Shown: positions 3,462-62,956 of the stretch, piece by piece | Layout: every line of letters starts with the position of its first letter | Position numbering within the stretch: the first letter of the stretch is position 1 | Assembly (NCBI GenBank): GCA_965372355.1 | Contig: CBDVBZ010000004.1 | Location: forward strand, 5,119-69,118 | Origin: an uncultured bacterium | GTDB lineage: Bacteria; Krumholzibacteriota; Krumholzibacteriia; WVZY01 | Direction: 5' to 3' | DNA: 64,000 nt | The notes under the pieces: model-generated | Databases searched by the model: none | Told to the model about the DNA's origin: nothing | What the model saw: the letters and a program-made list of their open reading frames with translations, nothing else | Made by a program: the position numbers and the translations under genes

Positions 3462-4301
3462 CTAGATGCGGCCCAGCGCCATCGCGAGGATGCCAAAGAA
3501 CATCTGCACCTTGAGAATCCGGCTCGTCCAGTGCAGGGCGACCCGCTCACGCGAGCGGAGCGCGAGAAAGGCGGCGGCCAGGACACCGGGGACGAAGAGG
3601 AGTTCCATGACAAACCCGTAGGTTATTCCGTAGTAGCCGACCAACGCCGGCACTGGGGAAACGATGACGCACAGATACAGTGAAGCGGCGGCCCAAAGAA
3701 CCGCGACCCTCGCACCGTAACGGACGGCAATGGTCGACGCGCCGGCCTCGCGGTCACCGGGGATATCCTCGGCACCCTTGACCAGCTCGCGGCCCATGAC
3801 CAGCAGAAATGCCAGCAGCGCGGGAAACCCGGTTGCCTCGAAGTTGCCGGTCGGGATCGCGCCACCCACAAAGGCACTCGCGGCGATCGCCGCGACCAGA
3901 AGGTTTCCGGCAAGCGCGATACGTTTTCCCTTGCGCGCATAGTAGTAGAGTAGAACTTGCCACCCCAGAATGAGGGAGAACATCGGCGGGGACAACAGCG
4001 CGATCGCAAGAACTACTGTAATGACGGAACCGACGAGGTATGCGCGAAGGACGTACCCGGGTGTCAGCCGCCCGGACGGAATCGGCCGCCGGGGTTTGTT
4101 CACCCGGTCTATGTCACGATCGCAGTAGTCATTGATCAGATTGCCGAGCCCGGTAACAAAAGCGGTGAAGATGAACGGCAACGAGATATCCGCGGGGCGC
4201 GTACCGCCCGAAAGCAGGTAGCCCGCTACGATGCAACCACCCGCAGCGATCATGTTGTGGGGCCGAGTGATTTCGATCGTCGCGAGCAACCGAGCAGCCA
4301 C
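3462..4301 (-). CDS. UbiA-family aromatic/isoprenoid prenyltransferase (integral membrane)
   Basis: 279 aa, polytopic. First Asp-rich motif NDYCDRDIDRVNKPRRPIPSG is typical of the UbiA/DGGGP-synthase superfamily. Substrate cannot be assigned from sequence. Confidence 0.8.
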   Translation of the reverse strand: MAARLLATIEITRPHNMIAAGGCIVAGYLLSGGTRPADISLPFIFTAFVTGLGNLINDYCDRDIDRVNKPRRPIPSGRLTPGYVLRAYLVGSVITVVLAIALLSPPMFSLILGWQVLLYYYARKGKRIALAGNLLVAAIAASAFVGGAIPTGNFEATGFPALLAFLLVMGRELVKGAEDIPGDREAGASTIAVRYGARVAVLWAAASLYLCVIVSPVPALVGYYGITYGFVMELLFVPGVLAAAFLALRSRERVALHWTSRILKVQMFFGILAMALGRI

Positions 4302-4313
4302 GGGCCGGCTCCT

Positions 4314-5960
4314 TTACAGATTCCACGTCACATGCATGAACACGGATGTCAACCAGTCATCGATATCCTGTTGGTGCGCGACATTCTTCACCCTGGCCTG
4401 AATGAAATTCACGCCGATCGATGAGTTGCCGCGAAGCTCCCATTCCAGACCCAAACCGTATCCATAGGTTTTCTCCACGACACCGGACGGGAACTTCGGG
4501 TTGGGATCATCGCCTGCCACGAACTGGCGCCAGTCGTTGCCCTCTCCGCGACGCTCGAGCGAGAAGGAGAGTAACGTCGTCAAACTGGGGATCGGGTAGA
4601 CCGCCATGTCGATGTACGCGCGGTCGGAATCCGGGCCCAGTGAGGCCCCCAACGGGTTGTCGAGCGAAAGGTCCACGTCTCCGGTGACCCAGTAGTTTAT
4701 CGAGTCCTCGTGCGTGTATGTGTAGATATCGATATAGCGGTACTGGAAACGAAACGTGGCCGGTAAGGGGTCGACAAGAGCCACGCGCCCGCCGACGTCG
4801 AACGCGAGCTTGTCGGGATACGGATCGTCCTCGAACTGATAGTCGTCGATCAGAAAGCTGCCGTACAAAAGAAGACCGTTCGTCACCTCGTACTTCAGAT
4901 CGAACTCCCACGTGGCGTTATCGTTGTTTTCCAACTGCTCGTTGAACTGGTTGGAATAGAAGCTGCTCAACGGCAGAAGATACATGTGGTCAAAACCACG
5001 CCCTGTATAAATAACCGCTTCGCTCAAGCCCAAGACCGCGGGGCCGAACCGCATCTCGAGGCGGTGGGCGGCAAAACGACGATCCGCGGATGCCGAGAGC
5101 GTTGCGTTCAAAAAGCTGAACAGGAGGTTCTTGAAGCCGATCCGTGCGCCCCACTTGTCCAGGCTGCCGGCTGTGTCGGACAAGATCAAGTTGCCGACCT
5201 CGCTCGGACCCCAGTTTGAATAATCACGCCCCCAGAAAAGCGTCACCCGCCGTTTCCACTGGTAGACGAGATACGCACGCTCGTACAGCGACGTCAGTCC
5301 CTTAAAGCTCTTTTCACGGCGCGAGGGCTTACGTCTGTCGACACGATCGCCCCTCTCCGGTCCGAAAGTCAGCCGGTACCGCACCTCCCAAGTAACCCAG
5401 TCTTTGAAATGCAACCGAAGATCGGGGTTACCGGTCAGAAAAAACGCCCACTTCGGATCGTGCAGTGGCTTGCCGGGGACAAACGACAGGGCGACGTCTC
5501 CCTCCAGGTATAACGGGGCATCCTTGGCCCAAATAGCGGGCGGATCAAACCGTGTCTTGGGATCACTCTGGGCTTCGGGTAACGTGTACTCTTTCTGCAG
5601 CCGATCGAGATTGAACCGATCGCGCGCTGACAACAACGTCTCCGTCACTTCGATGCTTCTTAGTATCTGCTCGACGTAACCGATAACGTCCGGGCGTGTG
5701 AACAACGTCTCCGATGGGAGCCGGACGAGACGGAGGGCTTCGAAACGTTTGAGTGTGGGATAGGTCCAATCCTCGGGCGGAATAAACTCGTTGCCGATGC
5801 TTTCTGATTGGCTGTGACTTGCGGTGACCGTTATGAGGACGAAAATGACGAGAACCCCGAGCGTCCTAGGAAGTCCCCCCGTGCGTTTCGCTTTTCTGAA
5901 ATCTGCGATCCGCCGCCCGATAGTTCTCTTTTGCCTTGTCAAGCTGACCAGCCTTGTCAT
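4314..5960 (-). CDS. predicted secreted/outer-membrane protein (possible beta-barrel; Wzi-like capsule-assembly protein is one possibility)
   Basis: Positively charged N-region then hydrophobic signal segment LGVLVIFVLITVTASHS. Body is rich in alternating aromatic/hydrophilic stretches (YRYIDIYTYTHEDSINYWVTGDVDLSL, GYGLGLEWELRG). Start is uncertain: the longest ORF begins at 5996 and overlaps the upstream TPR gene. Confidence 0.5.
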   Translation of the reverse strand: MTRLVSLTRQKRTIGRRIADFRKAKRTGGLPRTLGVLVIFVLITVTASHSQSESIGNEFIPPEDWTYPTLKRFEALRLVRLPSETLFTRPDVIGYVEQILRSIEVTETLLSARDRFNLDRLQKEYTLPEAQSDPKTRFDPPAIWAKDAPLYLEGDVALSFVPGKPLHDPKWAFFLTGNPDLRLHFKDWVTWEVRYRLTFGPERGDRVDRRKPSRREKSFKGLTSLYERAYLVYQWKRRVTLFWGRDYSNWGPSEVGNLILSDTAGSLDKWGARIGFKNLLFSFLNATLSASADRRFAAHRLEMRFGPAVLGLSEAVIYTGRGFDHMYLLPLSSFYSNQFNEQLENNDNATWEFDLKYEVTNGLLLYGSFLIDDYQFEDDPYPDKLAFDVGGRVALVDPLPATFRFQYRYIDIYTYTHEDSINYWVTGDVDLSLDNPLGASLGPDSDRAYIDMAVYPIPSLTTLLSFSLERRGEGNDWRQFVAGDDPNPKFPSGVVEKTYGYGLGLEWELRGNSSIGVNFIQARVKNVAHQQDIDDWLTSVFMHVTWNL

Positions 5961-6996
5961 AAACAACGCCGAGGTAGTAATACGCCTTGCCATCATCGGG
6001 GCTAATCTCGGTCACTCGCTTTAGGGGAGCAATCGCCTTGTCCGGCTCATCCATTCTATTGTAGCACACACCGATGCGGTACAGAATCGAGGGATTCTCC
6101 GGATCCATTTGCAGCGCGCTGTGCAGACTCTTGACCGCTTTTCCGTACAACCCCTTCTTGTCGTATGCCAGGCCGAGGTACAAATGAGCATTCTTGTGTG
6201 ACTGATCGAGCCGCAGAACTCTTCTGAATTCTTCGATTGCACCCTTGATGTCACCTTGTTCAAAAAGGGCCACACCGAGATTGAAGTGCGCCTCGATGCT
6301 TTTTGGCTCGAGTTCGATCGCAAGGCTGAATTGTTGAATCGCCCGTTCGTGCATTCCCCTTTCACCGTAGAGCGCGCCCAGATTGAAACGCGCCGCCGCG
6401 CTATCGGGGTTGAATTGCACCGCCTTCCGAAACAACTGTATCGCAGTCTCGCCTTCGCCCTTCAAATCGAGCAAATAGCCAAGGTTCGTGTACGCTTTAC
6501 TGTGCGCACCGTCCAGAGCGATCGCTCTGCGATAGCACACTTCCGCTTTCTCGTAACGCTCGCCGCACGCCAGGGTGACTCCGTAACGGTAGTGGCATTC
6601 CGCGTTGTCCGGATCGAGCTCGATTGCGTATTCGTGTTCCTTGATCGCTCGATCCATATCACCGAGTTGTTCGCTGAGACGGCCGAGGAAGTAGTGCGAC
6701 AGTGCACGATGGGTCTGCGTTGCCGCCAAACGCTCGTAGCAGGTCAAGGCGTCCCGCAGGCACTTCCGATCCACCAGCGTTTTGCCGATCACCTCGAGCA
6801 ACGTCGGGGAGACATCAGGGCTCTCGACAATACGCCTGGAGTAAGCCAGCGCCTCTTCCCCCCTGTCCGATTGCCAGAGGAGCCCCGCGAGCTCGCAGGT
6901 GGCCATGTGATCGTTCGGATCGCGATCGACCCGCTGCTGCAGACGACCGAGGCGCCTGAGGTCCGCTCTGGATATTTCCTGACTCTCCAATGTCAT
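5866..6996 (-). CDS. TPR-repeat protein
   Basis: 376 aa of consecutive 34-aa TPR units (e.g. AYYYLGVVYDKAGQLDKAKENYRAA, AHLYLGLAYDKKGLYGKAVKSLHSAL). No other domain recognised. Confidence 0.8.
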   Translation of the reverse strand: MTLESQEISRADLRRLGRLQQRVDRDPNDHMATCELAGLLWQSDRGEEALAYSRRIVESPDVSPTLLEVIGKTLVDRKCLRDALTCYERLAATQTHRALSHYFLGRLSEQLGDMDRAIKEHEYAIELDPDNAECHYRYGVTLACGERYEKAEVCYRRAIALDGAHSKAYTNLGYLLDLKGEGETAIQLFRKAVQFNPDSAAARFNLGALYGERGMHERAIQQFSLAIELEPKSIEAHFNLGVALFEQGDIKGAIEEFRRVLRLDQSHKNAHLYLGLAYDKKGLYGKAVKSLHSALQMDPENPSILYRIGVCYNRMDEPDKAIAPLKRVTEISPDDGKAYYYLGVVYDKAGQLDKAKENYRAADRRFQKSETHGGTS

Positions 6997-7094
6997 AGCT
7001 TCACCTTGTTTAGCGTCCCAAAGCGAAACTATTACAGCATTGAAAAAGGTGTCAAGAATTATTGCGCGGAGCAGTGGTACCTATCTAATTGCGA

Positions 7095-8573
7095 CTAAGC
7101 CTCTTCGTCGCCAACCTGGATCTCGAGCTCGATTTTGATCGGGACGGTCTTGCGCATCTGTGACCGTTTGAGATACACGGGGACCGTCACGGTGACCGGT
7201 TCGTCATCCTGGCTGGCCACAGGCGATGGGTGCCCCGGCGGCGGGCTCGCTGTCCTGGGGGGTGGCGATGTCGCCTCCTTGGGCTCCGGCTCCTCTGTTT
7301 CGGCCGTTTTGGACTGAAACGGGTCGACGATAAACTCTCCCCCTTGCGAATCCGTGGGTAACTCGACCGGCGTGTCATCGAAATCGATCACGCGGCCGAC
7401 GTCCTCGTCCACTTCCCGGGAGCTCTCCAACGACGCAAACTGGAACTCCTTGTCGAGGGAGTCATCCATCTTCTTCTCGGTGCCCGCGTTGGCTTCCCCC
7501 AGAGGCGTCTGGGCCATCGGGGGCGCCGTTTCGATCTTCCCGGGCTTAGATGGCGCTGATGTCACGACACGTGGCGTATCCGGCACCGGCACGTTGTTCT
7601 CTTCCACCTCGCGGAGCGCGCTGTCGACCACATCGGAAACGTCGTCGCTCACCGCGGGCGGCTTCGGACCGGCCGGCTGAGACGCCCAGGGCTGCGATTG
7701 GGTTGTCTGCGCGGCCGTCGGCTGCGATCGGGTTGTCTGCGCGGCCGTCGGCTGCGATTGGGTTGTCTGCGCGGCCGTCGGCTGCGATTGGGTTGTCTGT
7801 GCGGCCGTCGGCTGCGATCGGGTTGTCTGCGCGGCCGTCGGCTGCGGCTCGGTGACGTGCGGCATGGGTCCGTGAGCGGCCACCGGCTGCGGCTCCGGAG
7901 TCTGCGGCGTGGGAGGCGCCTCGGTCTGCGACTCCTGCGGCGAACCTTCCACCCCGGCTCCGACACGCGGCGCCGGCTGGGTGCTCTTCAGGCGTTCAAC
8001 GAGCTGCCGGTACAGCAATCCGCCGATCGCGCGGAATGTCTCGTAGATACCGTGGCCGGTCGTCGCAACCGCCTCATAGCTCGGAACGTTCAACAGATTC
8101 AGCTTGCTGTTCAGCATCGCGACGGGCAGTGCGCCGGGGAGATCCCGCTTGTTGTACTGGATCACCCACGGCATCGTATCGAGCGTCAAGCTGTGCTCGT
8201 TGAGGTTTTCCTCGAGGTTGCGAAGGCTTTCGATGTTCTCCTCCATCTTCGAGGCCTGGGAATCCGCGACAAACACCACGGCGTCGGCTCCCTTCAAAAC
8301 TAGTTTTCTCGTCGCGTTGTAGTAGACCTGTCCCGGCACCGTGTAAAGTAGTATCCGTGTTCGATAACCGTTGATCTCCCCGACATCTAGTGGTAAGAAA
8401 TCGAAGAAGAGGGTCCGATCGGTCCGGGTTTTCATCGACACCATTTTGCCCTTCGTGTCCTCCGGCATTCTTTCGTAGATAAATTCGAGATTCGTCGTTT
8501 TGCCACTCAAAGCCGGCCCGTAATAGACGACCTTGGCGTTGAGCTCGGCTCCTGAGTAATTGAAAACAACCAT
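7095..8573 (-). CDS. mglA: MglA-family Ras-like small GTPase with ~300-aa low-complexity C-terminal extension
   Basis: From [33 protein letters not shown]... the first ~195 aa align closely with Myxococcus MglA ([59 protein letters not shown]). P-loop GPALSGKTT, switch-I Thr, TVPGQ and NKRD are all present. The tail is Pro/Thr/Gln-rich with five QPTAAQTT[RQ]S repeats and an acidic segment. The ORF-track start at 8729 is a 52-aa artefactual extension. Confidence 0.85.
   Translation of the reverse strand: [492 protein letters not shown]
7690..7855. repeat. 30-bp tandem repeat, ~5.4 copies (GGCTGCGAT[TC]GGGTTGTCTGCGCGGCCGTC), in-frame inside mglA-like tail
   Basis: Directly visible periodicity at 7690-7719, 7720-7749, 7750-7779, 7780-7809, 7810-7839, plus a partial unit. 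Encodes the [10 protein letters not shown] decapeptide repeats. Confidence 0.9.
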
Positions 8574-8804: not shown

Positions 8805-9731
8805 GTGAGCCGTGACGGCCGGGCCACCCGCGTGCATTCTGCTTGGGTATATAGCAACATGATGCGATCGACCAAGAACGGCGTGGGGACGCGGGTTTCG
8901 CGAACAAGACCGTCTCCGGGATACCGGGCGGTCACGTGGCTCGCGTCCAAAACGCCTCACCCGATGCTCGTGCGGCTGGCAAAACTCGGCGGATGGATCC
9001 ACTACTGGGCTGCTCGTGACAAGCGTCGAAACTACTTGAACAATACGTCACAAGCAATTGACTTCAATGGCACTACAAAACCGTGGCATGCGTTCCAGAA
9101 TCAAGTACTCAACATCCTCGAACTCCTCAAGGCGACGTCGGAGACCGAAGTCCAGGTGATCTCGCGGCTGTCGCTGCACGGTGGCGAGCATATCGACTCC
9201 GCGCTGCAACTTGGAACCGGCTTGATTCTAACCACGATGCATTCCGGCAACTGGGAGTTGTCCGGGCTGCTCCTGTCCTTACGCGGCTACCCGATTACGA
9301 CCGTCGCGGGAACCCAGCTCCGGGAGGGCTGGTCCGATGAAGTCAAGGCGTTCAAGGAGCGCCACGGCATCAGTGTGATTTCGCCCCACAACAGCATGAG
9401 GCCGCTGTATCGGGCTCTACAGTCAAATCGAATCGTTGTCCTTCACATCGATGGCGATGTTTATCGAGCGGGTATCGAAGCGACGCTTCTCGGCAGAACG
9501 GTGATGGTTCCGCGCGGTCCCGCCCACCTCTCTCGAGCGGTGGGTGCACCCACTGCTTTCGCATACTGCCGGCGAACCGCCGACAACCGCTTGCTCGTCC
9601 ACGTCGAGTCACCCCACGCCCCACCAAGCACGGATGCGGATGAGCTTCGGTTGACGCAGCACTACGTTGGCCGCCTCGAAAATTGTATATTGGAAGACCC
9701 TAGCCAGTGGTGTATATTTAGCAGACTGTGA
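8805..9731 (+). CDS. LpxL/HtrB/MsbB-family lipid acyltransferase (LABLAT superfamily; PatA-like)
   Basis: Family motif TTMHSGNWELSG (H-x-GNWE). Downstream ...VLHIDGDVYRAGIEATLLGRTVMVPRGPAHLSRAVGAPTAFAYCRR is typical of lauroyl/palmitoyl acyltransferases. Start could be the internal MMRS (~8859). Confidence 0.8.
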   Translation: MSRDGRATRVHSAWVYSNMMRSTKNGVGTRVSRTRPSPGYRAVTWLASKTPHPMLVRLAKLGGWIHYWAARDKRRNYLNNTSQAIDFNGTTKPWHAFQNQVLNILELLKATSETEVQVISRLSLHGGEHIDSALQLGTGLILTTMHSGNWELSGLLLSLRGYPITTVAGTQLREGWSDEVKAFKERHGISVISPHNSMRPLYRALQSNRIVVLHIDGDVYRAGIEATLLGRTVMVPRGPAHLSRAVGAPTAFAYCRRTADNRLLVHVESPHAPPSTDADELRLTQHYVGRLENCILEDPSQWCIFSRL

Positions 9732-9756
9732 GTGGTCACCGAATCCGGCGGGTCAC

Positions 9757-10938
9757 ATGAAGGTTGTACAAGTTACCCAATCCTACCATCCCCGTCCCGG
9801 TGGAGTGACGGAGCACGTCGATCACGTCACCCGGGAGCTCAGACGTCGCGGCCACGAAGTGACGATTGTCACCACGAATTTCGGCCATGGCTGCGCCGAG
9901 CAGCCGGGCGTCATCCGTATCGGACGCAATGCCCTCGTCCCGATAAACAGCGCCTGGGTCAACATGACCGTCGGCTGGAATCTGCAACGCGAACTTGCCC
10001 GCGTTCTCGACTCGCAACAGCCCGACGTCATCCACACGCACTGCCCGCTGGCACCGACGCTTCCACTCATGACACTCCTGGCGGCTCCCGAGAGCTCAGC
10101 CGTCATTGGGACGTTCCATGCGGCGGCGCGGCAGAGCCTCGGCTACCGGGTCTTTGGCGGCGTGCTCGAGAAATTTGCCGCGCGACTCGACGTGCGCATT
10201 GCAGTCTCGGATGCGGCGCGGTCTCTGGCGGACTCGTACTTCCCTGGCGACTATGTCATCGTCCCGAACGGGGTTGACTGTGAACGGTTCTCTCCGCGCC
10301 ATAAACCAATCGAGGACTTCAAAGACAACGCGTTCAACATCCTGTTTGTCGGACGCATGGACAAACGCAAGGGGCTCAAGTACCTCTTTCGAGCCGTCGC
10401 GTTGGCCGCAAGACGCACGTCGCGGCGTCTTCGTTTGATCGTCGTTGGTGATGACGGCCCCCGGAGGCATCTGCTGCCGAGGATCAACGATGTTGTCGAA
10501 GTCGTTTTCACCGGTGTTGTCGATCGTGATCTGGTGCCGCGCTACTTCGCAACAGGCGATATGTTCTGCTCACCGGCAATAGACCGCGAGAGCTTTGGAA
10601 TCGTTCTTCTGGAAGCGATGGCCTCGGGGCTTCCCGTCGTCGGGACTACGATACGAGGCTATCTGACCATACTCAAGCCGGAGCAGAATGCGCTCGTCGT
10701 CCCGCCAAAGGACCCCACCGCGCTGTGTGACGCCATCGTGCGGATGGCCGAGGACGAACCCCTGCGCTGGAGGCTGCGCAAGGCGGGGCTGAGCTTCGCC
10801 CAGTCCTACCGATGGGACCGCGTCGTCGATCAGCTCGAAGCGGTCTATCGAGGACAAACGGAATTGCAGACCGCCTGGCAATCCGCCGATGCGCAGCTCA
10901 TCGCGGAATCGCCCCCCGCGAGGGCACAAAAGGCCTAG
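9757..10938 (+). CDS. GT4 glycosyltransferase, PimA-like (phosphatidylinositol mannosyltransferase-like)
   Basis: From MKVVQVTQSYHPRPGGVTEHVDHVTRELRRRGHEVTIVT. Blocks RIAVSD...VPNGVD...FVGRMDKRKG...CSPAIDRESFGIVLLEAMASGLPVV parallel mycobacterial PimA (RIAVSD, IPNGVD, FLGRYDEPRKG, CAPHLGGESFGIVLVEAMAAG). The ORF-track start at 9667 is an extension. Confidence 0.8.
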   Translation: MKVVQVTQSYHPRPGGVTEHVDHVTRELRRRGHEVTIVTTNFGHGCAEQPGVIRIGRNALVPINSAWVNMTVGWNLQRELARVLDSQQPDVIHTHCPLAPTLPLMTLLAAPESSAVIGTFHAAARQSLGYRVFGGVLEKFAARLDVRIAVSDAARSLADSYFPGDYVIVPNGVDCERFSPRHKPIEDFKDNAFNILFVGRMDKRKGLKYLFRAVALAARRTSRRLRLIVVGDDGPRRHLLPRINDVVEVVFTGVVDRDLVPRYFATGDMFCSPAIDRESFGIVLLEAMASGLPVVGTTIRGYLTILKPEQNALVVPPKDPTALCDAIVRMAEDEPLRWRLRKAGLSFAQSYRWDRVVDQLEAVYRGQTELQTAWQSADAQLIAESPPARAQKA

Positions 10939-10943
10939 CCGCT

Positions 10944-12176
10944 GTGCCGTCTTCGCGCGCTCTCAAACTCTGTTTTCTTTTCTTTGCACTCGCTCAGATC
11001 ACGTCGATATTCGGTGATCGTCTCCATCAGTTCTCCGTCGTGGGAATGATCGGGCGCATCAACCCCGGCGATGCCGTCGAGCTCTATCAACTCGCTCTTT
11101 TTTCGTTTTTGCCCGTCCTCGTCTTTGCCCCCATGTTTGGCAGCCTGATCGACCGGTCCAACAAAGCCCTCGTGCTGATCGTGGTCGATCTGATCCGCGG
11201 GGGTATCGTGCTTCTGGTTCCCACGCTGTTCTACCTGATGGGCAACCTGTACGCGTTCTATCTGCCCGTGCTTTTCCTCTCGCTCGCCAACCTCTGGTTC
11301 GCGCCCGCGAAGTCTGCCGTCATCCCGGAGATCTTCGGCGAGCGATATCTGCTGCAAATCAACGCGGTCCTCTGGGGACTGGGAATCGTCGGCACGCTGG
11401 GCGGATTTCTGCTGGGCGGGTGGCTGATCGACTTCCACAGCTGGGAACTGAGCTTCTACAGCGACGGCGCGAGCTATCTGATCTCGGTGGTGTTTCTGCT
11501 CCCCATGCTCGCCGTGGCCCGCGCGCGAAAGAACAAATGCTCGAAACAAACGGCGACGCCTGCCGGCGACGCCGCGCGCGGCATGATCGGCTCCGTTCGC
11601 GAGGGACTCGTTCTCATTCGGGGCAACCGGCCGGTGGCATACGGACTGATCACCCAAACCACGTTGTTCGGGGGCCTCGGTATCCTCTACGTGATCGGCA
11701 TTGCGCACATCCAGTCGGTGTTTCCACCGGACAGGACGATTTACCTGAGCATCGTCGCGTCGGCCGCGACGGTTGGTCTCCTGGCAGGCGCCGCGCTCGG
11801 GGCGGCGTTGAGGCGATGGCTATCCGTCAACCCGGTGATCGCGCAGTCGACCTTTCTTCTCGCGATCTCCTGCATCGGCATTGCCAGAACTGACACGCTC
11901 GTACCCATGACCGTTTGGGCGCTCGTCATGGGGATCTCGCTGTCGCCTCTCTTCATCGTCACGGAAACGCTTCTCCAGGTGTCGACACCGGAGGCGTTCC
12001 GGGGGCGCGTGTTCTCCTCCCGCGAGGTTCTGACAAAGGCATCGTTTCTCTTGATGTCATCGGTAGCGACGCTCGCAACAGCGCTCGTCGGCAAAGAAAC
12101 CATCATAATGGGCGTCGGCGTAGTTCTTGCAGGACTTGCGATGTTGCTCGCAACGAAGAACTTCCTTAAGGCGTAG
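10944..12176 (+). CDS. MFS-type transporter (12 predicted TM helices)
   Basis: Hydrophobic helices throughout (LCFLFFALAQITSIFGDRL..., GLGIVGTLGGFLLGGWLIDF...). Putative GTG start at 10944 just after the upstream stop; the ORF-track start at 10812 overlaps the GT4 gene. Confidence 0.7.
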   Translation: MPSSRALKLCFLFFALAQITSIFGDRLHQFSVVGMIGRINPGDAVELYQLALFSFLPVLVFAPMFGSLIDRSNKALVLIVVDLIRGGIVLLVPTLFYLMGNLYAFYLPVLFLSLANLWFAPAKSAVIPEIFGERYLLQINAVLWGLGIVGTLGGFLLGGWLIDFHSWELSFYSDGASYLISVVFLLPMLAVARARKNKCSKQTATPAGDAARGMIGSVREGLVLIRGNRPVAYGLITQTTLFGGLGILYVIGIAHIQSVFPPDRTIYLSIVASAATVGLLAGAALGAALRRWLSVNPVIAQSTFLLAISCIGIARTDTLVPMTVWALVMGISLSPLFIVTETLLQVSTPEAFRGRVFSSREVLTKASFLLMSSVATLATALVGKETIIMGVGVVLAGLAMLLATKNFLKA

Positions 12177-12205
12177 AATCATTACTCAAAGCGGGTGATC
12201 CTGCT

Positions 12206-12646: not shown

Positions 12647-13560
12647 GGCTTCTTATCGCCTTCGTTCACGGGCGGGTGTGAGTTGCCGTTGATCTTCTCG
12701 AGCTCCACGGACCGTCCACCATCCGAATACACCACCTTGTCCATGATGCTCTGCATCAGATACACTCCCCTCCCCGAGGACCGGAGCACGTTCTGACCCC
12801 TGGTGGGATCCGCTATCGCGGCGAAGTCAAACCCTTCCCCTTGATCCTTGATCTTGATCTTGAAACGCGACGAGCTCACATAGATGTGTACGCTCACCTT
12901 CTTGTGGGGGTCGGATCGATTGCCATGGAGCATGGCGTTTGTCAGCGCCTCGTCACAGGCCAGCGGGATATTGATCCTGCAGTCCGTCGGCGGATAGGAG
13001 AATTCCTTCAACAGGAGTGAAATCAGGTAGTTCAAACCGAGCACGAACGCGAGATCGTTTGGGATCAGGAAATCGAGCCGGACCATCCCGCGTCCCATGA
13101 GATCGGGGTACCGCTTGAACTGTGGGATATTGGGAAGCGCCGTTGCGATTTCCGCCTTGAGATCGATGTCCTCGTACGGCGGCAAGAGCACGTTCTGCAC
13201 TCCGATCGACTGGAACCTCAGGAAACTCACCTGCGGGCACTCACCCAACACGAGCAAATAGTTGAGTTGCGGATACTCGAGCTTGCAACTGCGCAGGAGC
13301 GGAGCGTCGATATCCTGCGCCTTCTTCTCGACGATGACAGCAAAGGCCAGGCTGAGCTTCTCCACCCGGGCAAGCGCCTCCATCAACTTTTCGATACTGG
13401 AATGGACCGTGTAGTGCTCCGGAGCGCCGGAGCATTTTGAAAGAACTACCCTGAGGTGCCCGGAATCACTCGAAACGACGTAGACTATTGGCTCTCGAGC
13501 TCTGGGCGCTTCTTGATATGCGTGACCCGGTACGTGGCGTTCAGAATACTTTTTGCCCAT
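12643..13560 (-). CDS. RsbW-like GHKL ATPase/serine-kinase domain protein with N-terminal pseudo-receiver-like domain
   Basis: C-terminal N-box ACDEALTNAMLHGN and G1-box KDQGEGFD match the HATPase_c fold of anti-sigma-factor kinases. The N-terminal ~190 aa show alternating beta/alpha hydrophobic blocks (IVYVVSS, LAFAVIV, YLLVLG) suggestive of a REC/STAS-like fold. Start taken at MGKKYSE. Confidence 0.6.
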   Translation of the reverse strand: MGKKYSERHVPGHAYQEAPRAREPIVYVVSSDSGHLRVVLSKCSGAPEHYTVHSSIEKLMEALARVEKLSLAFAVIVEKKAQDIDAPLLRSCKLEYPQLNYLLVLGECPQVSFLRFQSIGVQNVLLPPYEDIDLKAEIATALPNIPQFKRYPDLMGRGMVRLDFLIPNDLAFVLGLNYLISLLLKEFSYPPTDCRINIPLACDEALTNAMLHGNRSDPHKKVSVHIYVSSSRFKIKIKDQGEGFDFAAIADPTRGQNVLRSSGRGVYLMQSIMDKVVYSDGGRSVELEKINGNSHPPVNEGDKKP

Positions 13561-14149
13561 CCGCCAAAATCTCGTTGAGCGCTTCTTTGAAGTAGTCGGT
13601 TGATTTGGCAACCTCAGGCCCGACTTTTTCCTTGTAGAGTTCCCAGGATTTCTTTATCTCGTCACCCAGAGCCATCATGAGATTGCCGTCGACGAGCGCC
13701 TGATCCCGTTTATCCTGGTTGTAACACAGGATATCGGAAACCAGAACCCTGGCGAGCCGCCTGGCCCTGTCCTGCTCGGTGTCCCTGCGGCGCTTCCTTC
13801 GCGGCGGCGTCTTCGCAGACGCGCGTTCCGGTGTCGCAGGTGGACTCGCCTTCTCGTCGGGTTGTCCGCCGGCATCCGTCTTCAGAGCGGGCTCGCGTTT
13901 CAGCTCCACGCCCGATCCCTCGGGTGGTTTTGTAAACGCCGCCTGCTCCTGCATTCCAACGGTGGTATCCGGCGATTTCGCCGGTGACCTTACCATGACG
14001 TCTTCGACACCGACAACCACATTCTGGCGTTGCGGCGCCAGGGTGAAAACCGCCTTGCACTGCGGGCACCGGACACGTGTGGGTTTGGATGGAACCTTTG
14101 CATCCGGCAGAAAATATTTCGCCGCACACCCCTCACAGAGAATGGTCAT
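13541..14149 (-). CDS. zinc-ribbon (MJ0042-type CxxC...CxxC) protein with Pro-rich linker and conserved C-terminal helical domain
   Basis: N-terminus MTILCEGCAAKYFLPDAKVPSKPTRVRCPQCKAVF. Pro/Ala/Lys-rich linker with an RRKRRR patch. C-terminal ...ARVLVSDILCYNQDKRDQALVDGNLMMALGDEIKKSWELY.... Confidence 0.55.
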   Translation of the reverse strand: MTILCEGCAAKYFLPDAKVPSKPTRVRCPQCKAVFTLAPQRQNVVVGVEDVMVRSPAKSPDTTVGMQEQAAFTKPPEGSGVELKREPALKTDAGGQPDEKASPPATPERASAKTPPRRKRRRDTEQDRARRLARVLVSDILCYNQDKRDQALVDGNLMMALGDEIKKSWELYKEKVGPEVAKSTDYFKEALNEILADGQKVF

Positions 14150-41391: not shown

Positions 41392-43785
41392 CTAGCGAAT
41401 CAACGAGATCGTTCTGACGACCGTGCCCGTGTCCGCCGATATTCGAACCAGATATACACCGCTTGCCGCGAAAAACCCGGATTCCGTCGTCAGATCCCAC
41501 ACCTCGCGTTCATTGGGACGGACGTTTTCCTCCGCGTGGACCAGCTCGCCTTCCAGTGTGTAGATCTCGATGTCGACCGGGCTGTTGTGATTCGCGATCT
41601 TCAACATGGTGTGGCCCCGGCGCGGGCGAATCGGGTTTGGGTATAGATAGACCTTTGAAAGATCCGTCGGGCCCGGTTCCAATGACGACAGATCCAGTAT
41701 AGATAAACCACCCGCGGTTGCAATGTAAAGCAGGTTCTGAGTCGGATGCAGCGTGAGGGCATGACAGAGCGCATCGGCCAGCGCCGACACAACCTTCTTC
41801 TGGTCAGGAAAGAAAAGACTCAGTTGCTCCCGCCACGCGGCCTGCGTAGTGAAGGACAAGATCTCGCGCTCATTGTCCCGGCTGATCCGGTTCAGACCCA
41901 AATCGGTGGCCACCCAAAGGTTTTCGTCGTGGTCGAGCGCAAGATCCATAACGGCGTTGCTGAGTAATTCGCCCCCCAACCCACGCTTCGCTTGAAACCT
42001 TCTGAACAAACCGTTCTCGTATCCATAAACCCCCGCTTTCGTACCCACCCACACAACCCCGTCGCTCCGCACGGTCACGGCGGACACGTCTCCGCCGTCG
42101 AAGTCATCGGCGACCGTACCCAAATGGGTCCACACATCGCCCGACAGATCGAAGAGGCTGGCTTTGTCGTACCCTCCGGTTCTCCACTCCCGGACGCCGT
42201 CCGATGCGTCCGCAACCCAGACCACCCCCCCGGGGCCAAAAGCGACGTCTGTGATATCGCCCACTTGCATGCCGAGGTTTGTGCTCGTGGGCGTGATGTG
42301 CCGCCATTCGTTTCCGTCTTCGCTCAAGATACTGATGCCGCGCCATTCGTCCGGGGCTGTTCCGCCGGGGTCGACAGCGTGCAGAAACCACCGGTTGCCC
42401 GCGGGGTCTTCCATTGCCCTATGGTGTCTCAACGATCCCAAACCGTCGCCGCCACCGGATCCGATGTCGTGATGTGTCCAGATATCGTTTTCGTACGAAA
42501 GATCCAAACCATCCTCCAGCTGGTCAACCTCTATCTCCGGCACTAACGGCCTCCACAACGAACAGAACCACTTCGATCCTTGCGAATCGGCAAGTAAGGC
42601 GAGGTTCGTGGACCGAGTACTCAGATTCGTGTCACCAACGGCGGGGTTGTAGTTGAACCACGTTCCACTCGGTGTCAGTTTGCCAACGCCAAAGCTCGCA
42701 CTCGACACCCACAACGACCCATCGATATCGAATGAGCTGCGACGCAGGTCTCTGCCCGTTGGCGCGTTGGCGCGCAGATCCCGCACGGTCGTTCCATCAA
42801 AAAGGAGAAGGTATCCACCGCGGCCGCGGCTCACCTGGCCGGTTCCCATATAGACCGTCCCATCCACCATGGGTTGAAGTCCGCGGGTCTCGGCCTGGCT
42901 GTTGAGCCCGTACTTGTGGAAGATGTGGACAAAGCTATGGGTGATCCACCCGCTGCCGTCGTTTTCGAACAACCGGGAATTCGACGCCGCCCAAAGCTTC
43001 TGTCCGCCAAACTTGATCGAGAAGATCGATTCTGTGCCGAGCCCCGCCGGGATCCACGTGCCGCCAGAATCATCGAGATACGCCAGACCAGCGCTGGTAC
43101 CTACCCACAGTGCGGTGTCGTCTCTGGCAAACACGTGTGCATTGAGACTCGGGAGACCGTTCGATACCTCCTCCGTGAAGCCAAGACGGTCGCGTCTGGC
43201 GACACCGTTGTCCGTCGCAAACCACAGGAAGTCACCGTCGACAAAGACGTCCGCGATCTCCTCGCTCGGCAGACTGTCCGTGGGAAACCGGGAACTCGGA
43301 AACCCGGCAACGATGAGACCGGCGCCGGCCTTGGTGCCGTAAACAACACTGTCTCCCCAGGCCGTCACCGTTGTTATGCGATCGTCGGCAATCCCATCCC
43401 CGGTGGCCTCGAATGTGCTCACATCGAACCCCCCGGGCACGAAGTCGAGCCGGGCAATCCCCAACCGGTCGGTTCCGACCCAAAGCGAGCCCTTGCTGTC
43501 GAACGCAAGACACGTGAGAAAGCTCGTTGGAAGACCGATCGTGTTGGTAAACTGTTCGAAGGTCGAGTCGTCGGGTTGGTATACGAGAAGTCCGCCGCTC
43601 GTCGCGCAGTAGAGTTCCCCGTCCCTCATGACGATCTCCGAAATGAGGTTTGGGTTGATATGATTGACCCACTCGCTCTGCTGGGCTTCGGCGTCCTCAC
43701 GCCAGATCGTAGCGATGGCAATGAGAACGAGGAGGTGTCTCGAGATTCGACGGATTGGGCTGATCATTGGTGGTATAGCGCGCAC
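41392..43785 (-). CDS. secreted multi-bladed beta-propeller protein (Reg_prop-like repeats) with T9SS-type C-terminal sorting domain
   Basis: Signal peptide MISPIRRISRHLLVLIAIATIWREDAEAQ. Many W/G-rich repeats (GSLWVGTDRLGIARLD, TALWVGTSAGLAYLD, GVVWVGTKAGVYGY, NLWVATDLGLNRI). C-terminal ~85 aa LYPNPIRP...IEIYTLEGELVH...EVWDLTTESGFFAASGVYLVRI matches the Por/T9SS CTD (or FlgD-Ig-like) pattern. Confidence 0.75.
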   Translation of the reverse strand: MRAIPPMISPIRRISRHLLVLIAIATIWREDAEAQQSEWVNHINPNLISEIVMRDGELYCATSGGLLVYQPDDSTFEQFTNTIGLPTSFLTCLAFDSKGSLWVGTDRLGIARLDFVPGGFDVSTFEATGDGIADDRITTVTAWGDSVVYGTKAGAGLIVAGFPSSRFPTDSLPSEEIADVFVDGDFLWFATDNGVARRDRLGFTEEVSNGLPSLNAHVFARDDTALWVGTSAGLAYLDDSGGTWIPAGLGTESIFSIKFGGQKLWAASNSRLFENDGSGWITHSFVHIFHKYGLNSQAETRGLQPMVDGTVYMGTGQVSRGRGGYLLLFDGTTVRDLRANAPTGRDLRRSSFDIDGSLWVSSASFGVGKLTPSGTWFNYNPAVGDTNLSTRSTNLALLADSQGSKWFCSLWRPLVPEIEVDQLEDGLDLSYENDIWTHHDIGSGGGDGLGSLRHHRAMEDPAGNRWFLHAVDPGGTAPDEWRGISILSEDGNEWRHITPTSTNLGMQVGDITDVAFGPGGVVWVADASDGVREWRTGGYDKASLFDLSGDVWTHLGTVADDFDGGDVSAVTVRSDGVVWVGTKAGVYGYENGLFRRFQAKRGLGGELLSNAVMDLALDHDENLWVATDLGLNRISRDNEREILSFTTQAAWREQLSLFFPDQKKVVSALADALCHALTLHPTQNLLYIATAGGLSILDLSSLEPGPTDLSKVYLYPNPIRPRRGHTMLKIANHNSPVDIEIYTLEGELVHAEENVRPNEREVWDLTTESGFFAASGVYLVRISADTGTVVRTISLIR

Positions 43786-62691: not shown

Positions 62692-62827
62692 TCGTTCCAC
62701 CCGGCGTCAGGAGACGCCAGTTTACAAGTACCTGGGCAATGTGTGTGGAAAACTGGGGGTACGAAGAAAGCTCGACCCACGCACAACTCCGCGCGAGGGC
62801 CCGCGAGTAGCGGACACATCCGTGCAA

Positions 62828-62956
62828 CAAACCTTCTCCCATCCAGACTTTAACTGTCGGCTCCGTGATTCCAACGGATCAGTGAGCGCATGCGCTCACT
62901 CGCGGGCTTTGACCGCCGGTGGGGACTTTCACCCCGCCCCGAAGGTTTTCTCACGT
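62828..62956 (-). promoter_or_regulatory. FMN riboswitch (RFN element) in 5' leader of the rib operon
   Basis: Minus-strand read: CUUCGGGGCGGGGUGAAAGUCCCCACCGGCGGU...AAAGCCCGCGAGUGAGCGCAUGCGCUCACUGAUCCGUUGGAAUCACGGAGCCGACAGUUAAAGUCUGGAUGGGAGAAGG. This matches the FMN aptamer consensus (CUUCGGGGCAGGGUGAAAUUCCCGACCGGCGGU...GCCGACAGU.AAAGUCUGGAUGGGAGAAGG). Confidence 0.9.

Follow-up and report, generated by a model that had tools for sequence, protein, structure and literature searches.

A tailed Group-1 MglA-type GTPase encoded without MglB and beside a tetratricopeptide repeat protein gene in an uncultured Krumholzibacteriota bacterium

We analyzed a 64,000-nucleotide stretch of DNA from an uncultured Krumholzibacteriota bacterium (contig CBDVBZ010000004.1; "the window" hereafter means this whole stretch), focusing on a gene for a small GTPase of the MglA family and on the genes that follow it on the same strand, which code for a tetratricopeptide repeat (TPR) protein, a predicted outer-membrane barrel and a UbiA-family prenyltransferase. 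Among bacterial polarity switches, the Ras-like MglA serves as the model, and what is known of its logic comes almost entirely from Myxococcus, with MglB as the GTPase-activating protein (GAP) and RomRX as the guanine nucleotide exchange factor. The GTPase of the window combines an MglA G domain carrying the intact catalytic set with a long conserved C-terminal tail, has no mglB nearby, as in its entire clade, and is encoded next to the TPR gene. The reading that we favor, and to which we give an even chance, is that the locus represents an undescribed sub-lineage of Group-1 MglA that is MglB independent, tailed and co-inherited with a TPR protein, and that is tied here to cell-envelope genes.

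Results

The G domain assigns the GTPase to MglA. Residues 1 to 192 matched the MglA proteins of Myxococcus xanthus (E value, 3e-71) and Thermus thermophilus (3e-68) in a phmmer search of PDB sequences, and the top Foldseek matches of the AlphaFold2 (AF2) model were MglA structures (58% identity; target TM scores, 0.83 to 0.87). The motifs fall in the M. xanthus register: the P-loop GPALSGKT at 19 to 26, R53-T54, TVPGQ at 78 to 82 and NKRD at 141 to 144. The hallmarks of Group 1 are an Arg finger beside the G2 Thr, TVPGQ in G3 (Thr replacing Asp) and NKxD (PMC4316618). Judged by these features, the protein is a genuine Group-1 MglA, a Ras-like switch protein, and the first-pass annotation was right to call it an unambiguous MglA. 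The assignment rests on PDB sequences and on the fold because Pfam and NCBIfam hold no MglA model; the only matches obtained there were Arf (1e-5) and Gtr1_RagA. Many homologs bear the JGI label "signal recognition particle receptor subunit beta," a generic Arf-like annotation that we rejected in view of TVPGQ and R53, which are specific to MglA. Across 121 homologs, R53, T54 and TVPGQ do not vary, which argues for a hydrolyzing switch, and with this invariant catalytic set the G domain is most likely a working one.

Single-domain MglAs have about 195 residues, whereas the window protein has 492 and its closest homologs have 295 to 594. This length, the conserved tail of about 300 residues and the Ala at position 21 (see below) had been overlooked in the first-pass annotation, which described the G domain correctly. 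In the homolog alignment, the tail contains four conserved islands. The terminal motif (residues 459 to 492) is one of them; the others, approximately VxxVxDxALREV (312 to 323), VGRVxxLD (391 to 400) and EFITDP (413 to 420), lie in the linker (residues 196 to 458), in which P, T, Q, S, A and E make up 67% of the residues and the net charge is -23. The predicted local distance difference test (pLDDT) score of the AF2 model is about 45 to 55 in the linker and 80 to 86 in the last 30 residues. The linker also carries an in-frame tandem repeat, of which exactly one 10-residue unit is missing from L081, a near-identical 13.5-kb ENA contig reached via the barrel protein; this one-unit difference points to a strain-level length polymorphism.

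A hidden Markov model (HMM) of the terminal motif matched the extreme C termini of relatives and, weakly, the tails of Thermoanaerobaculia proteins (E values, 0.002 to 0.6). Used as a query, a 188-residue segment of the tail (about 305 to 492) found 22 matches among 1.84 billion representatives, each at or near its own C terminus, and a Pfam scan of the tail gave no family match. Given these two results, we rejected the idea that the tail is a known or widespread domain.

MglB is absent from the window. No Roadblock family member appeared among the Pfam matches better than 2e-5 for the 138 window open reading frames (ORFs) of 100 to 300 residues. An HMM built from 40 MglB/Roadblock proteins of related loci, the seed of which was checked against PDB 6izw_B (1e-27), detected no member among the window ORFs of 60 residues or more (best E value, 1.6), and because of this search we regard the absence over 64 kb as solid. 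In coupled MglA/MglB systems, mglB lies within four genes of mglA; here, as the first-pass annotation had noticed, a Roadblock gene is missing from the entire window. Its further statement that mglA is almost always paired with mglB holds for the majority, the actual figures being 390 of 449 (87%) with a partner and 59 of 449 (13%) orphans (Wuichet & Sogaard-Andersen 2014, PMC4316618).

The same absence extends to relatives. The related loci that we compared are 20-kb stretches, one genome per species, and constitute the best 80 of at least 596 matching stretches; the closest among these 80 is on a complete Latescibacterota chromosome (79% identity). The window MglA belongs to a clade with 99/100 bootstrap support that includes Latescibacterota, Krumholzibacteriia, Eisenbacteria and some Gemmatimonadota-labeled metagenome-assembled genomes (MAGs). 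All members of this TPR-linked clade are tailed (312 to 716 residues for the complete ones). A second group of orphan tailed MglAs, from Thermoanaerobaculia/Acidobacteriota, is likewise without mglB, and in the two groups together mglB occurs within 10 kb in none of 49 loci (27 TPR linked and 22 of the Thermoanaerobaculia type). Outside both, mglB was found within 10 kb in 22 of 31 loci, these being in the M. xanthus-type part of the tree with mglB adjacent; of the nine without it, most lie on contigs that end at the relevant side. A single clade for all orphan tailed MglAs was rejected, its union having 50/100 bootstrap support and not being recovered with Kimura distances.

The lack of MglB might nonetheless be a property of the locus and not of the organism. 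The tailed MglA could be a specialized paralog, comparable to SofG, that is regulated in trans, while a canonical short mglA-mglB pair resides elsewhere in the genome. Such an arrangement has a precedent in M. xanthus, which has MglA/MglB plus the orphan SofG, a Group-1 protein with a retained Arg finger, which MglB does not stimulate and for which no GAP is known (PMC4316618). Short, MglB-coupled MglAs are also present in Gemmatimonadota-labeled MAGs of the same scan (L062 and L069), and the retrieved loci are the best 80 of a larger set. However, the 64-kb window contains neither a second mglA nor an mglB, and not one of these best 80 loci is the second locus of a genome with the tailed form. 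On this basis, we find a SofG-like paralog rather unlikely.

A further explanation for the missing partner involves the P-loop. Residue 21, a Gly in M. xanthus MglA, is Ala in the window protein, and the MglA of Bdellovibrio bacteriovorus, an orphan that binds the TPR protein Bd2492, has the substitution G21S and was proposed to be GTP locked (Milner et al. 2014, PMC3983030). If Ala21 made the window protein insensitive to a GAP and permanently GTP bound, MglB would have become useless and been lost, and the GTPase would mark the pole for the TPR protein constitutively instead of cycling. The window protein thus has a non-Gly residue at this position, as does the Bdellovibrio protein, and Ala is found there in 61 of the 121 closest homologs. 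Yet the other 60, and most of the syntenic relatives (L002 to L006 and L008 to L015), have Gly21 and still no mglB, showing that MglB loss is not tied to G21A; moreover, R53 and Q82 are invariant. We therefore rejected G21A as a general account of the loss, half of the clade having Gly, and consider a GTP-locked landmark improbable.

What the clade retains along with the tail is the TPR gene. Its product has about eight TPR repeats, and an orthologous gene (36 to 64% protein identity) lies downstream of mglA in 21 of the 23 informative loci, including several with otherwise dissimilar flanks (L007, L012, L024, L025, L063 and L074). The first-pass annotation proposed checking the order mglA-TPR-barrel-ubiA in related genomes and listed a neighborhood that is not conserved as part of a refutation; the mglA-TPR pair is kept, at 21 of 23, which speaks against such a refutation, and the complete four-gene unit is confined to Latescibacterota and Krumholzibacteriia. 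Since the TPR gene is retained amid differing flanks and the barrel and UbiA genes are lineage specific, the robust unit is mglA-TPR.

In Krumholzibacteriia relatives (L006, L008, L010, L011 and L015, at about 11250 to 12100), mglA and the TPR gene are separated by inserted genes for a stand-alone receiver (about 120 residues; Pfam, 3.8e-20) and for a small secreted protein (about 150 residues, without a Pfam family). The receiver gene follows mglA in Krumholzibacteriia relatives only, and we count it as a possible signaling link in favor of an MglA-TPR switch module. In the MglA/MglB/RomR-RomX polarity module, RomR combines a receiver with Pro-rich and Glu-rich parts. In L009, the small-protein sequence closes a reading frame that runs on from mglA, giving a product of 716 residues.

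All four genes are on the minus strand where the first-pass annotation had placed them (Table 1), and their co-orientation, with overlaps or short gaps, is as it described. The mglA start is the ATG at 8573, and the homologs begin with MVV in the alignment of 121 sequences. A gap of 98 nt separates mglA from the TPR gene. The usable start codons of the barrel gene are all located at 5942 to 5996, within the TPR gene near its 3' terminus, and the two ORFs hence overlap by 77 to 131 nt. The UbiA gene starts 12 nt past the stop of the barrel gene, and valS comes next after a gap of about 255 nt. Upstream of mglA, in the opposite orientation, are genes for lipid and glycolipid functions, the products of which are shorter on L081 (255, 393 and 376 residues, according to the gene calls).

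Table 1. Positions of the mglA locus features in the window
Feature	Positions	Strand	Basis or remarks
mglA-like gene, 492 residues + stop	7095..8573	-	Group-1 MglA G domain + long C-terminal tail; ORF list, PDB phmmer, AF2/Foldseek
G domain, residues 1-195	7989..8573	-	R53/T54, TVPGQ 78-82, NKRD 141-144
Ala21 codon, P-loop GPALSGKT	8511..8513	-	Position of Gly21 in M. xanthus MglA, Ras Gly12 equivalent
Linker, residues 196-458, acidic, Pro/Thr/Gln/Glu-rich	7200..7988	-	Composition, alignment
30-bp tandem repeat, 5.2 copies, PTAAQTT[R/Q]SQ	7690..7846	-	Tandem Repeats Finder (TRF); in-frame, inside linker
Terminal motif, residues 459-492, TVPVxxxRSQxRKTxPxKLxLEIxVxDD	7098..7199	-	Conservation; two amphipathic beta-like segments
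TPR gene, 376 residues, cytoplasmic product	5866..6996	-	Pfam TPR_1 3e-54, 8 stretches; signal peptide absent
Gene for secreted Wzi-fold outer-membrane barrel	4314..5996	-	AF2, Foldseek; start between 5942 and 5996
UbiA-family membrane prenyltransferase gene, 279 residues	3462..4301	-	PF01040 4.4e-34
Divergent lipid/glycolipid genes	8805..12176	+	LpxL/PIM-acyltransferase-like, GT4 glycosyltransferase, LplT-like MFS transporter

The secreted protein, suspected in the first-pass annotation of being a beta-barrel, is modeled as one with high confidence (pLDDT, 93.5; predicted TM score, 0.91). In the maximal ORF of 560 residues, a signal helix and a small helical domain at the N terminus precede a large barrel of about 20 modeled strands. 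The best Foldseek match is Wzi (2ynk; E value, 3e-15; TM scores, 0.60/0.69; 11% identity), followed by OccD, AlgE and OmpM. The Wzi barrel has 18 strands. The architecture of Wzi, the outer-membrane lectin of group 1 capsules in E. coli, namely, a helical N-terminal domain followed by a large outer-membrane barrel, is recovered in the AF2 model and the Foldseek alignment. The differences from Wzi are the low identity, a Pfam score for Wzi (PF14052) that misses the gathering threshold (29.1 bits versus a cutoff of 30.1, over one 42-residue stretch) and the genomic context: no wza-wzb-wzc capsule genes adjoin the barrel gene, the neighbors of which are mglA, the TPR gene, ubiA and valS. The barrel family numbers 160 proteins at E values of 1e-10 or lower, and its profile weakly matched the SLH domain of Veillonella OmpM (8bz2; E value, 3e-4). 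The SLH-like part is the N-terminal region of about 130 residues of the protein encoded at 4314-5870 (minus strand), which carries the conserved motif IPxxxWxYxALxxFExLGL and could possibly be a periplasmic domain that binds peptidoglycan or another polymer. We did not adopt an OmpM-like SLH tether as the reading of the whole protein, given the E value of the SLH match and the better fold match to Wzi.

The closest solved relative of the UbiA protein is the archaeal DGGGP synthase of Methanocaldococcus jannaschii (6m31), which it matched over its full length (2.6e-32). It scored below the NCBIfam equivalog cutoffs (PRK12884, 188 bits versus 269; PRK12882, 183 bits versus 296), and no GGGPS/PcrB partner was listed in the Pfam scan of the window ORFs of 100 to 300 residues. 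DGGGP synthase-type homologs have been discussed for bacteria of the Fibrobacteres-Chlorobi-Bacteroidetes (FCB) group (Villanueva et al. 2021, PMC7852524). In several relatives (L007, L008, L010, L015, L018 and L020), UbiA is followed by a UppP/BacA-like gene, as read from the motif EFLPVSSSGH alone, and this adjacency suggests a role in supplying polyprenyl carriers rather than membrane ether lipids.

How these envelope genes relate to the GTPase is less evident than the mglA-TPR linkage. The Wzi-like barrel gene is present in 10 of 20 informative loci, all Latescibacterota or Krumholzibacteriia, and the UbiA gene in 11 of 20, from the same two lineages plus L018 and L020. The divergent acyltransferase and GT4 genes accompany mglA in 13 of 23 relatives and extend to Eisenbacteria and Gemmatimonadota. 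We interpret the barrel and UbiA genes as lineage-specific additions, for which the ORF overlap suggests a functional linkage.

A competing explanation, which we consider quite possible although we lean against it, is that mglA-TPR is the functional pair and that the barrel, UbiA and divergent lipid genes are housekeeping neighbors kept by vertical descent within one superphylum. The restricted distribution of the barrel and UbiA genes fits this explanation, as do the synteny of recG, valS and Zn-ribbon/RsbW-like genes in Latescibacterota and Krumholzibacteriia and a promoter-like site upstream of the TPR gene. Against it are the 77- to 131-nt overlap of the TPR and barrel ORFs and the 12-nt gap between barrel and UbiA. 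Likewise, TPR, barrel and UbiA have stayed contiguous in Krumholzibacteriia despite the receiver and small secreted-protein genes inserted after mglA, and UbiA follows the TPR gene directly, without the barrel, in L018 and L020.

Several observations weigh against our proposal of an MglB-independent, TPR-paired sub-lineage tied to the envelope. The barrel and UbiA genes follow the TPR gene only in lineages that share the synteny of valS and recG as well, and their linkage may consequently reflect shared ancestry instead of function. The 98-nt gap between mglA and the TPR gene contains a sigma-70-like site (10 of 12 matches), owing to which TPR, barrel and UbiA may be transcribed apart from mglA; terminator and promoter scans were at background level and not decisive. 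In Thermoanaerobaculia, the related orphan tailed MglAs lack a TPR neighbor, and all clade members come from uncultured MAGs. Finally, our search covered the window and the 20-kb loci, and mglB, romR or romX could be located elsewhere in the genome.

Discussion

Under the reading that we favor, the G domain would act as a functional GTP/GDP switch, one nucleotide state of which would bind the TPR protein as its effector or adaptor; the precedents are the binding of MglA-GTP to SgmX in Myxococcus and to Bd2492 in Bdellovibrio. The tail may substitute for control by MglB, providing contacts for localization, partner docking or regulation in cis. In Latescibacterota and Krumholzibacteriia, the mglA-TPR pair would be co-transcribed with the genes for the Wzi-fold barrel and the DGGGPS-like prenyltransferase, the glycolipid genes being divergent. 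In that case, the switch probably positions or gates the assembly of the envelope or of a surface polymer rather than serving a characterized motility engine.

A more specific version of this scheme can be proposed, although we think it doubtful. In this MglA subfamily, control by MglB may have been swapped for the built-in tail, with the terminal amphipathic motif docking on either the G domain or the TPR protein; the GTPase, together with its TPR adaptor, would spatially control the assembly of the outer membrane, surface polymers or isoprenoid lipids. If this were true, uncultured FCB-related phyla would use a small-GTPase polarity switch for envelope biogenesis instead of motility.

Compared with the MglA proteins of M. 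xanthus and T. thermophilus, the likeness is confined to the G domain (fold, identity level and the register of R53, TVPGQ and NKRD); the window protein lacks an adjacent MglB, has 492 residues and a tail where those proteins have about 195, and has Ala21 in place of Gly, and its gene is accompanied by TPR and envelope genes, unlike the mglBA operons of those species. The Bdellovibrio pair MglA-Bd2492 resembles the window in the orphan state of the GTPase, the substitution at residue 21, the TPR partner and the association of the TPR gene with outer-membrane genes, since Bd2492 is in an operon with tamAB-like genes (PMC3983030). In Bdellovibrio, however, mglA and the TPR gene are unlinked, MglA is single domain with Ser21 and the outer-membrane genes are TamA/TamB-like, whereas in the window the two genes are linked, MglA is tailed with Ala21 and the barrel is Wzi-like. 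Furthermore, MglA-TPR binding is known for Bdellovibrio, while we infer the interaction of the window proteins from the adjacency of their genes alone.

SofG of M. xanthus is, like the window MglA, an orphan Group-1 GTPase with an Arg finger. SofG is probably farther from MglA than the window G domain is (58% identity), which would weigh against the paralog reading. SgmX offers a parallel to the mglA-TPR pair, as a TPR protein that is a direct effector of MglA-GTP in M. xanthus (PMC7519303, PMC7668184).

Since both MglAs without a partner and TPR effectors had been described before, the system is not categorically new, and the first-pass annotation overstated the surprise of an MglB-less MglA beside a TPR protein: the 59 orphans among 449 include SofG and the Bdellovibrio MglA, and SgmX and Bd2492 are established effectors. 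A survey of Group-1 mglA genes reports variable neighborhoods and mentions neither TPR pairing nor tailed forms (PMC4316618), and our searches of open-access papers brought up no account of tailed MglAs or of MglA in phyla of the Latescibacterota/Krumholzibacteriota type. The tailed, MglB-less clade paired with a TPR protein is thus undescribed in the open-access literature.

A well-supported, multi-phylum clade that has the full catalytic set and no local MglB represents a natural system for studying how such a switch is regulated without a Roadblock GAP. The TPR linkage also opens a route to what TPR effectors do outside motility, and the Wzi-fold barrel, the DGGGPS-like prenyltransferase and the glycolipid genes hint that envelope assembly is under GTPase control in Latescibacterota and Krumholzibacteriota, which have no cultured models. 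The proteins of the locus are small enough for direct biochemistry.

The first-pass annotation also suggested a polarity or secretion-targeting module and connected it to a type IX secretion cargo at 41392-43785 (minus strand). A polarity or secretion-targeting module remains conceivable as an interpretation of the locus. The type IX connection is weak, the Por_Secre_tail match of this protein (E value, 2.7e-4) reaching 21.6 bits against a cutoff of 27. The same protein contains Reg_prop repeats.

Long MglAs are not restricted to the MglB-less groups. Many members of the MglB-coupled sister group have long MglAs too (L041, L047, L066, L067, L073, L077 and L078, at about 9600 to 12200, and L042, L050, L060 and L068), and these have a small Roadblock gene upstream and MglB downstream. 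The C termini of the Zixibacteriota, Ignavibacteriales and Fibrobacteria proteins form a basic amphipathic helix (KKRGFFKRLFGLK) resembling the membrane-targeting sequences of the MinD/FtsA type, and the Planctomycetota MglAs of this group have a C-terminal transmembrane helix, which suggests that the long forms of the sister group are membrane-anchored MglA modules. Two short MglAs from Gemmatimonadetes (L055 and L079, at about 10000 to 10580), with the unusual P-loops GTGLGGKT and GSGLGGKT, have no mglB within 10 kb; upstream of them is a gene that, judged by eye from its sequence, is recR-like, the same synteny as for the orphan mglA of Bdellovibrio.

A gene for an MJ0042-type zinc-ribbon protein of 202 residues (13541-14149, minus strand) is part of the synteny around mglA in Latescibacterota and Krumholzibacteriia. 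NCBIfam gave a weak match of this protein to the N terminus of GltJ (E value, 3e-4). In the gliding protein GltJ, the linker adjoining the zinc finger binds MglA-GTP, and the zinc-finger domain helps to recruit MglB (PMC11135422). No type IV pilus genes were noticed in the window, the annotation of which was not systematic. The remaining window is core chromosome, with the dcw cluster, polysaccharide genes and a rib operon. Upstream of this riboflavin operon is an ordinary flavin mononucleotide (FMN) riboswitch (62827-62950, minus strand; 113.7 bits), which is the sole Rfam match in the window.

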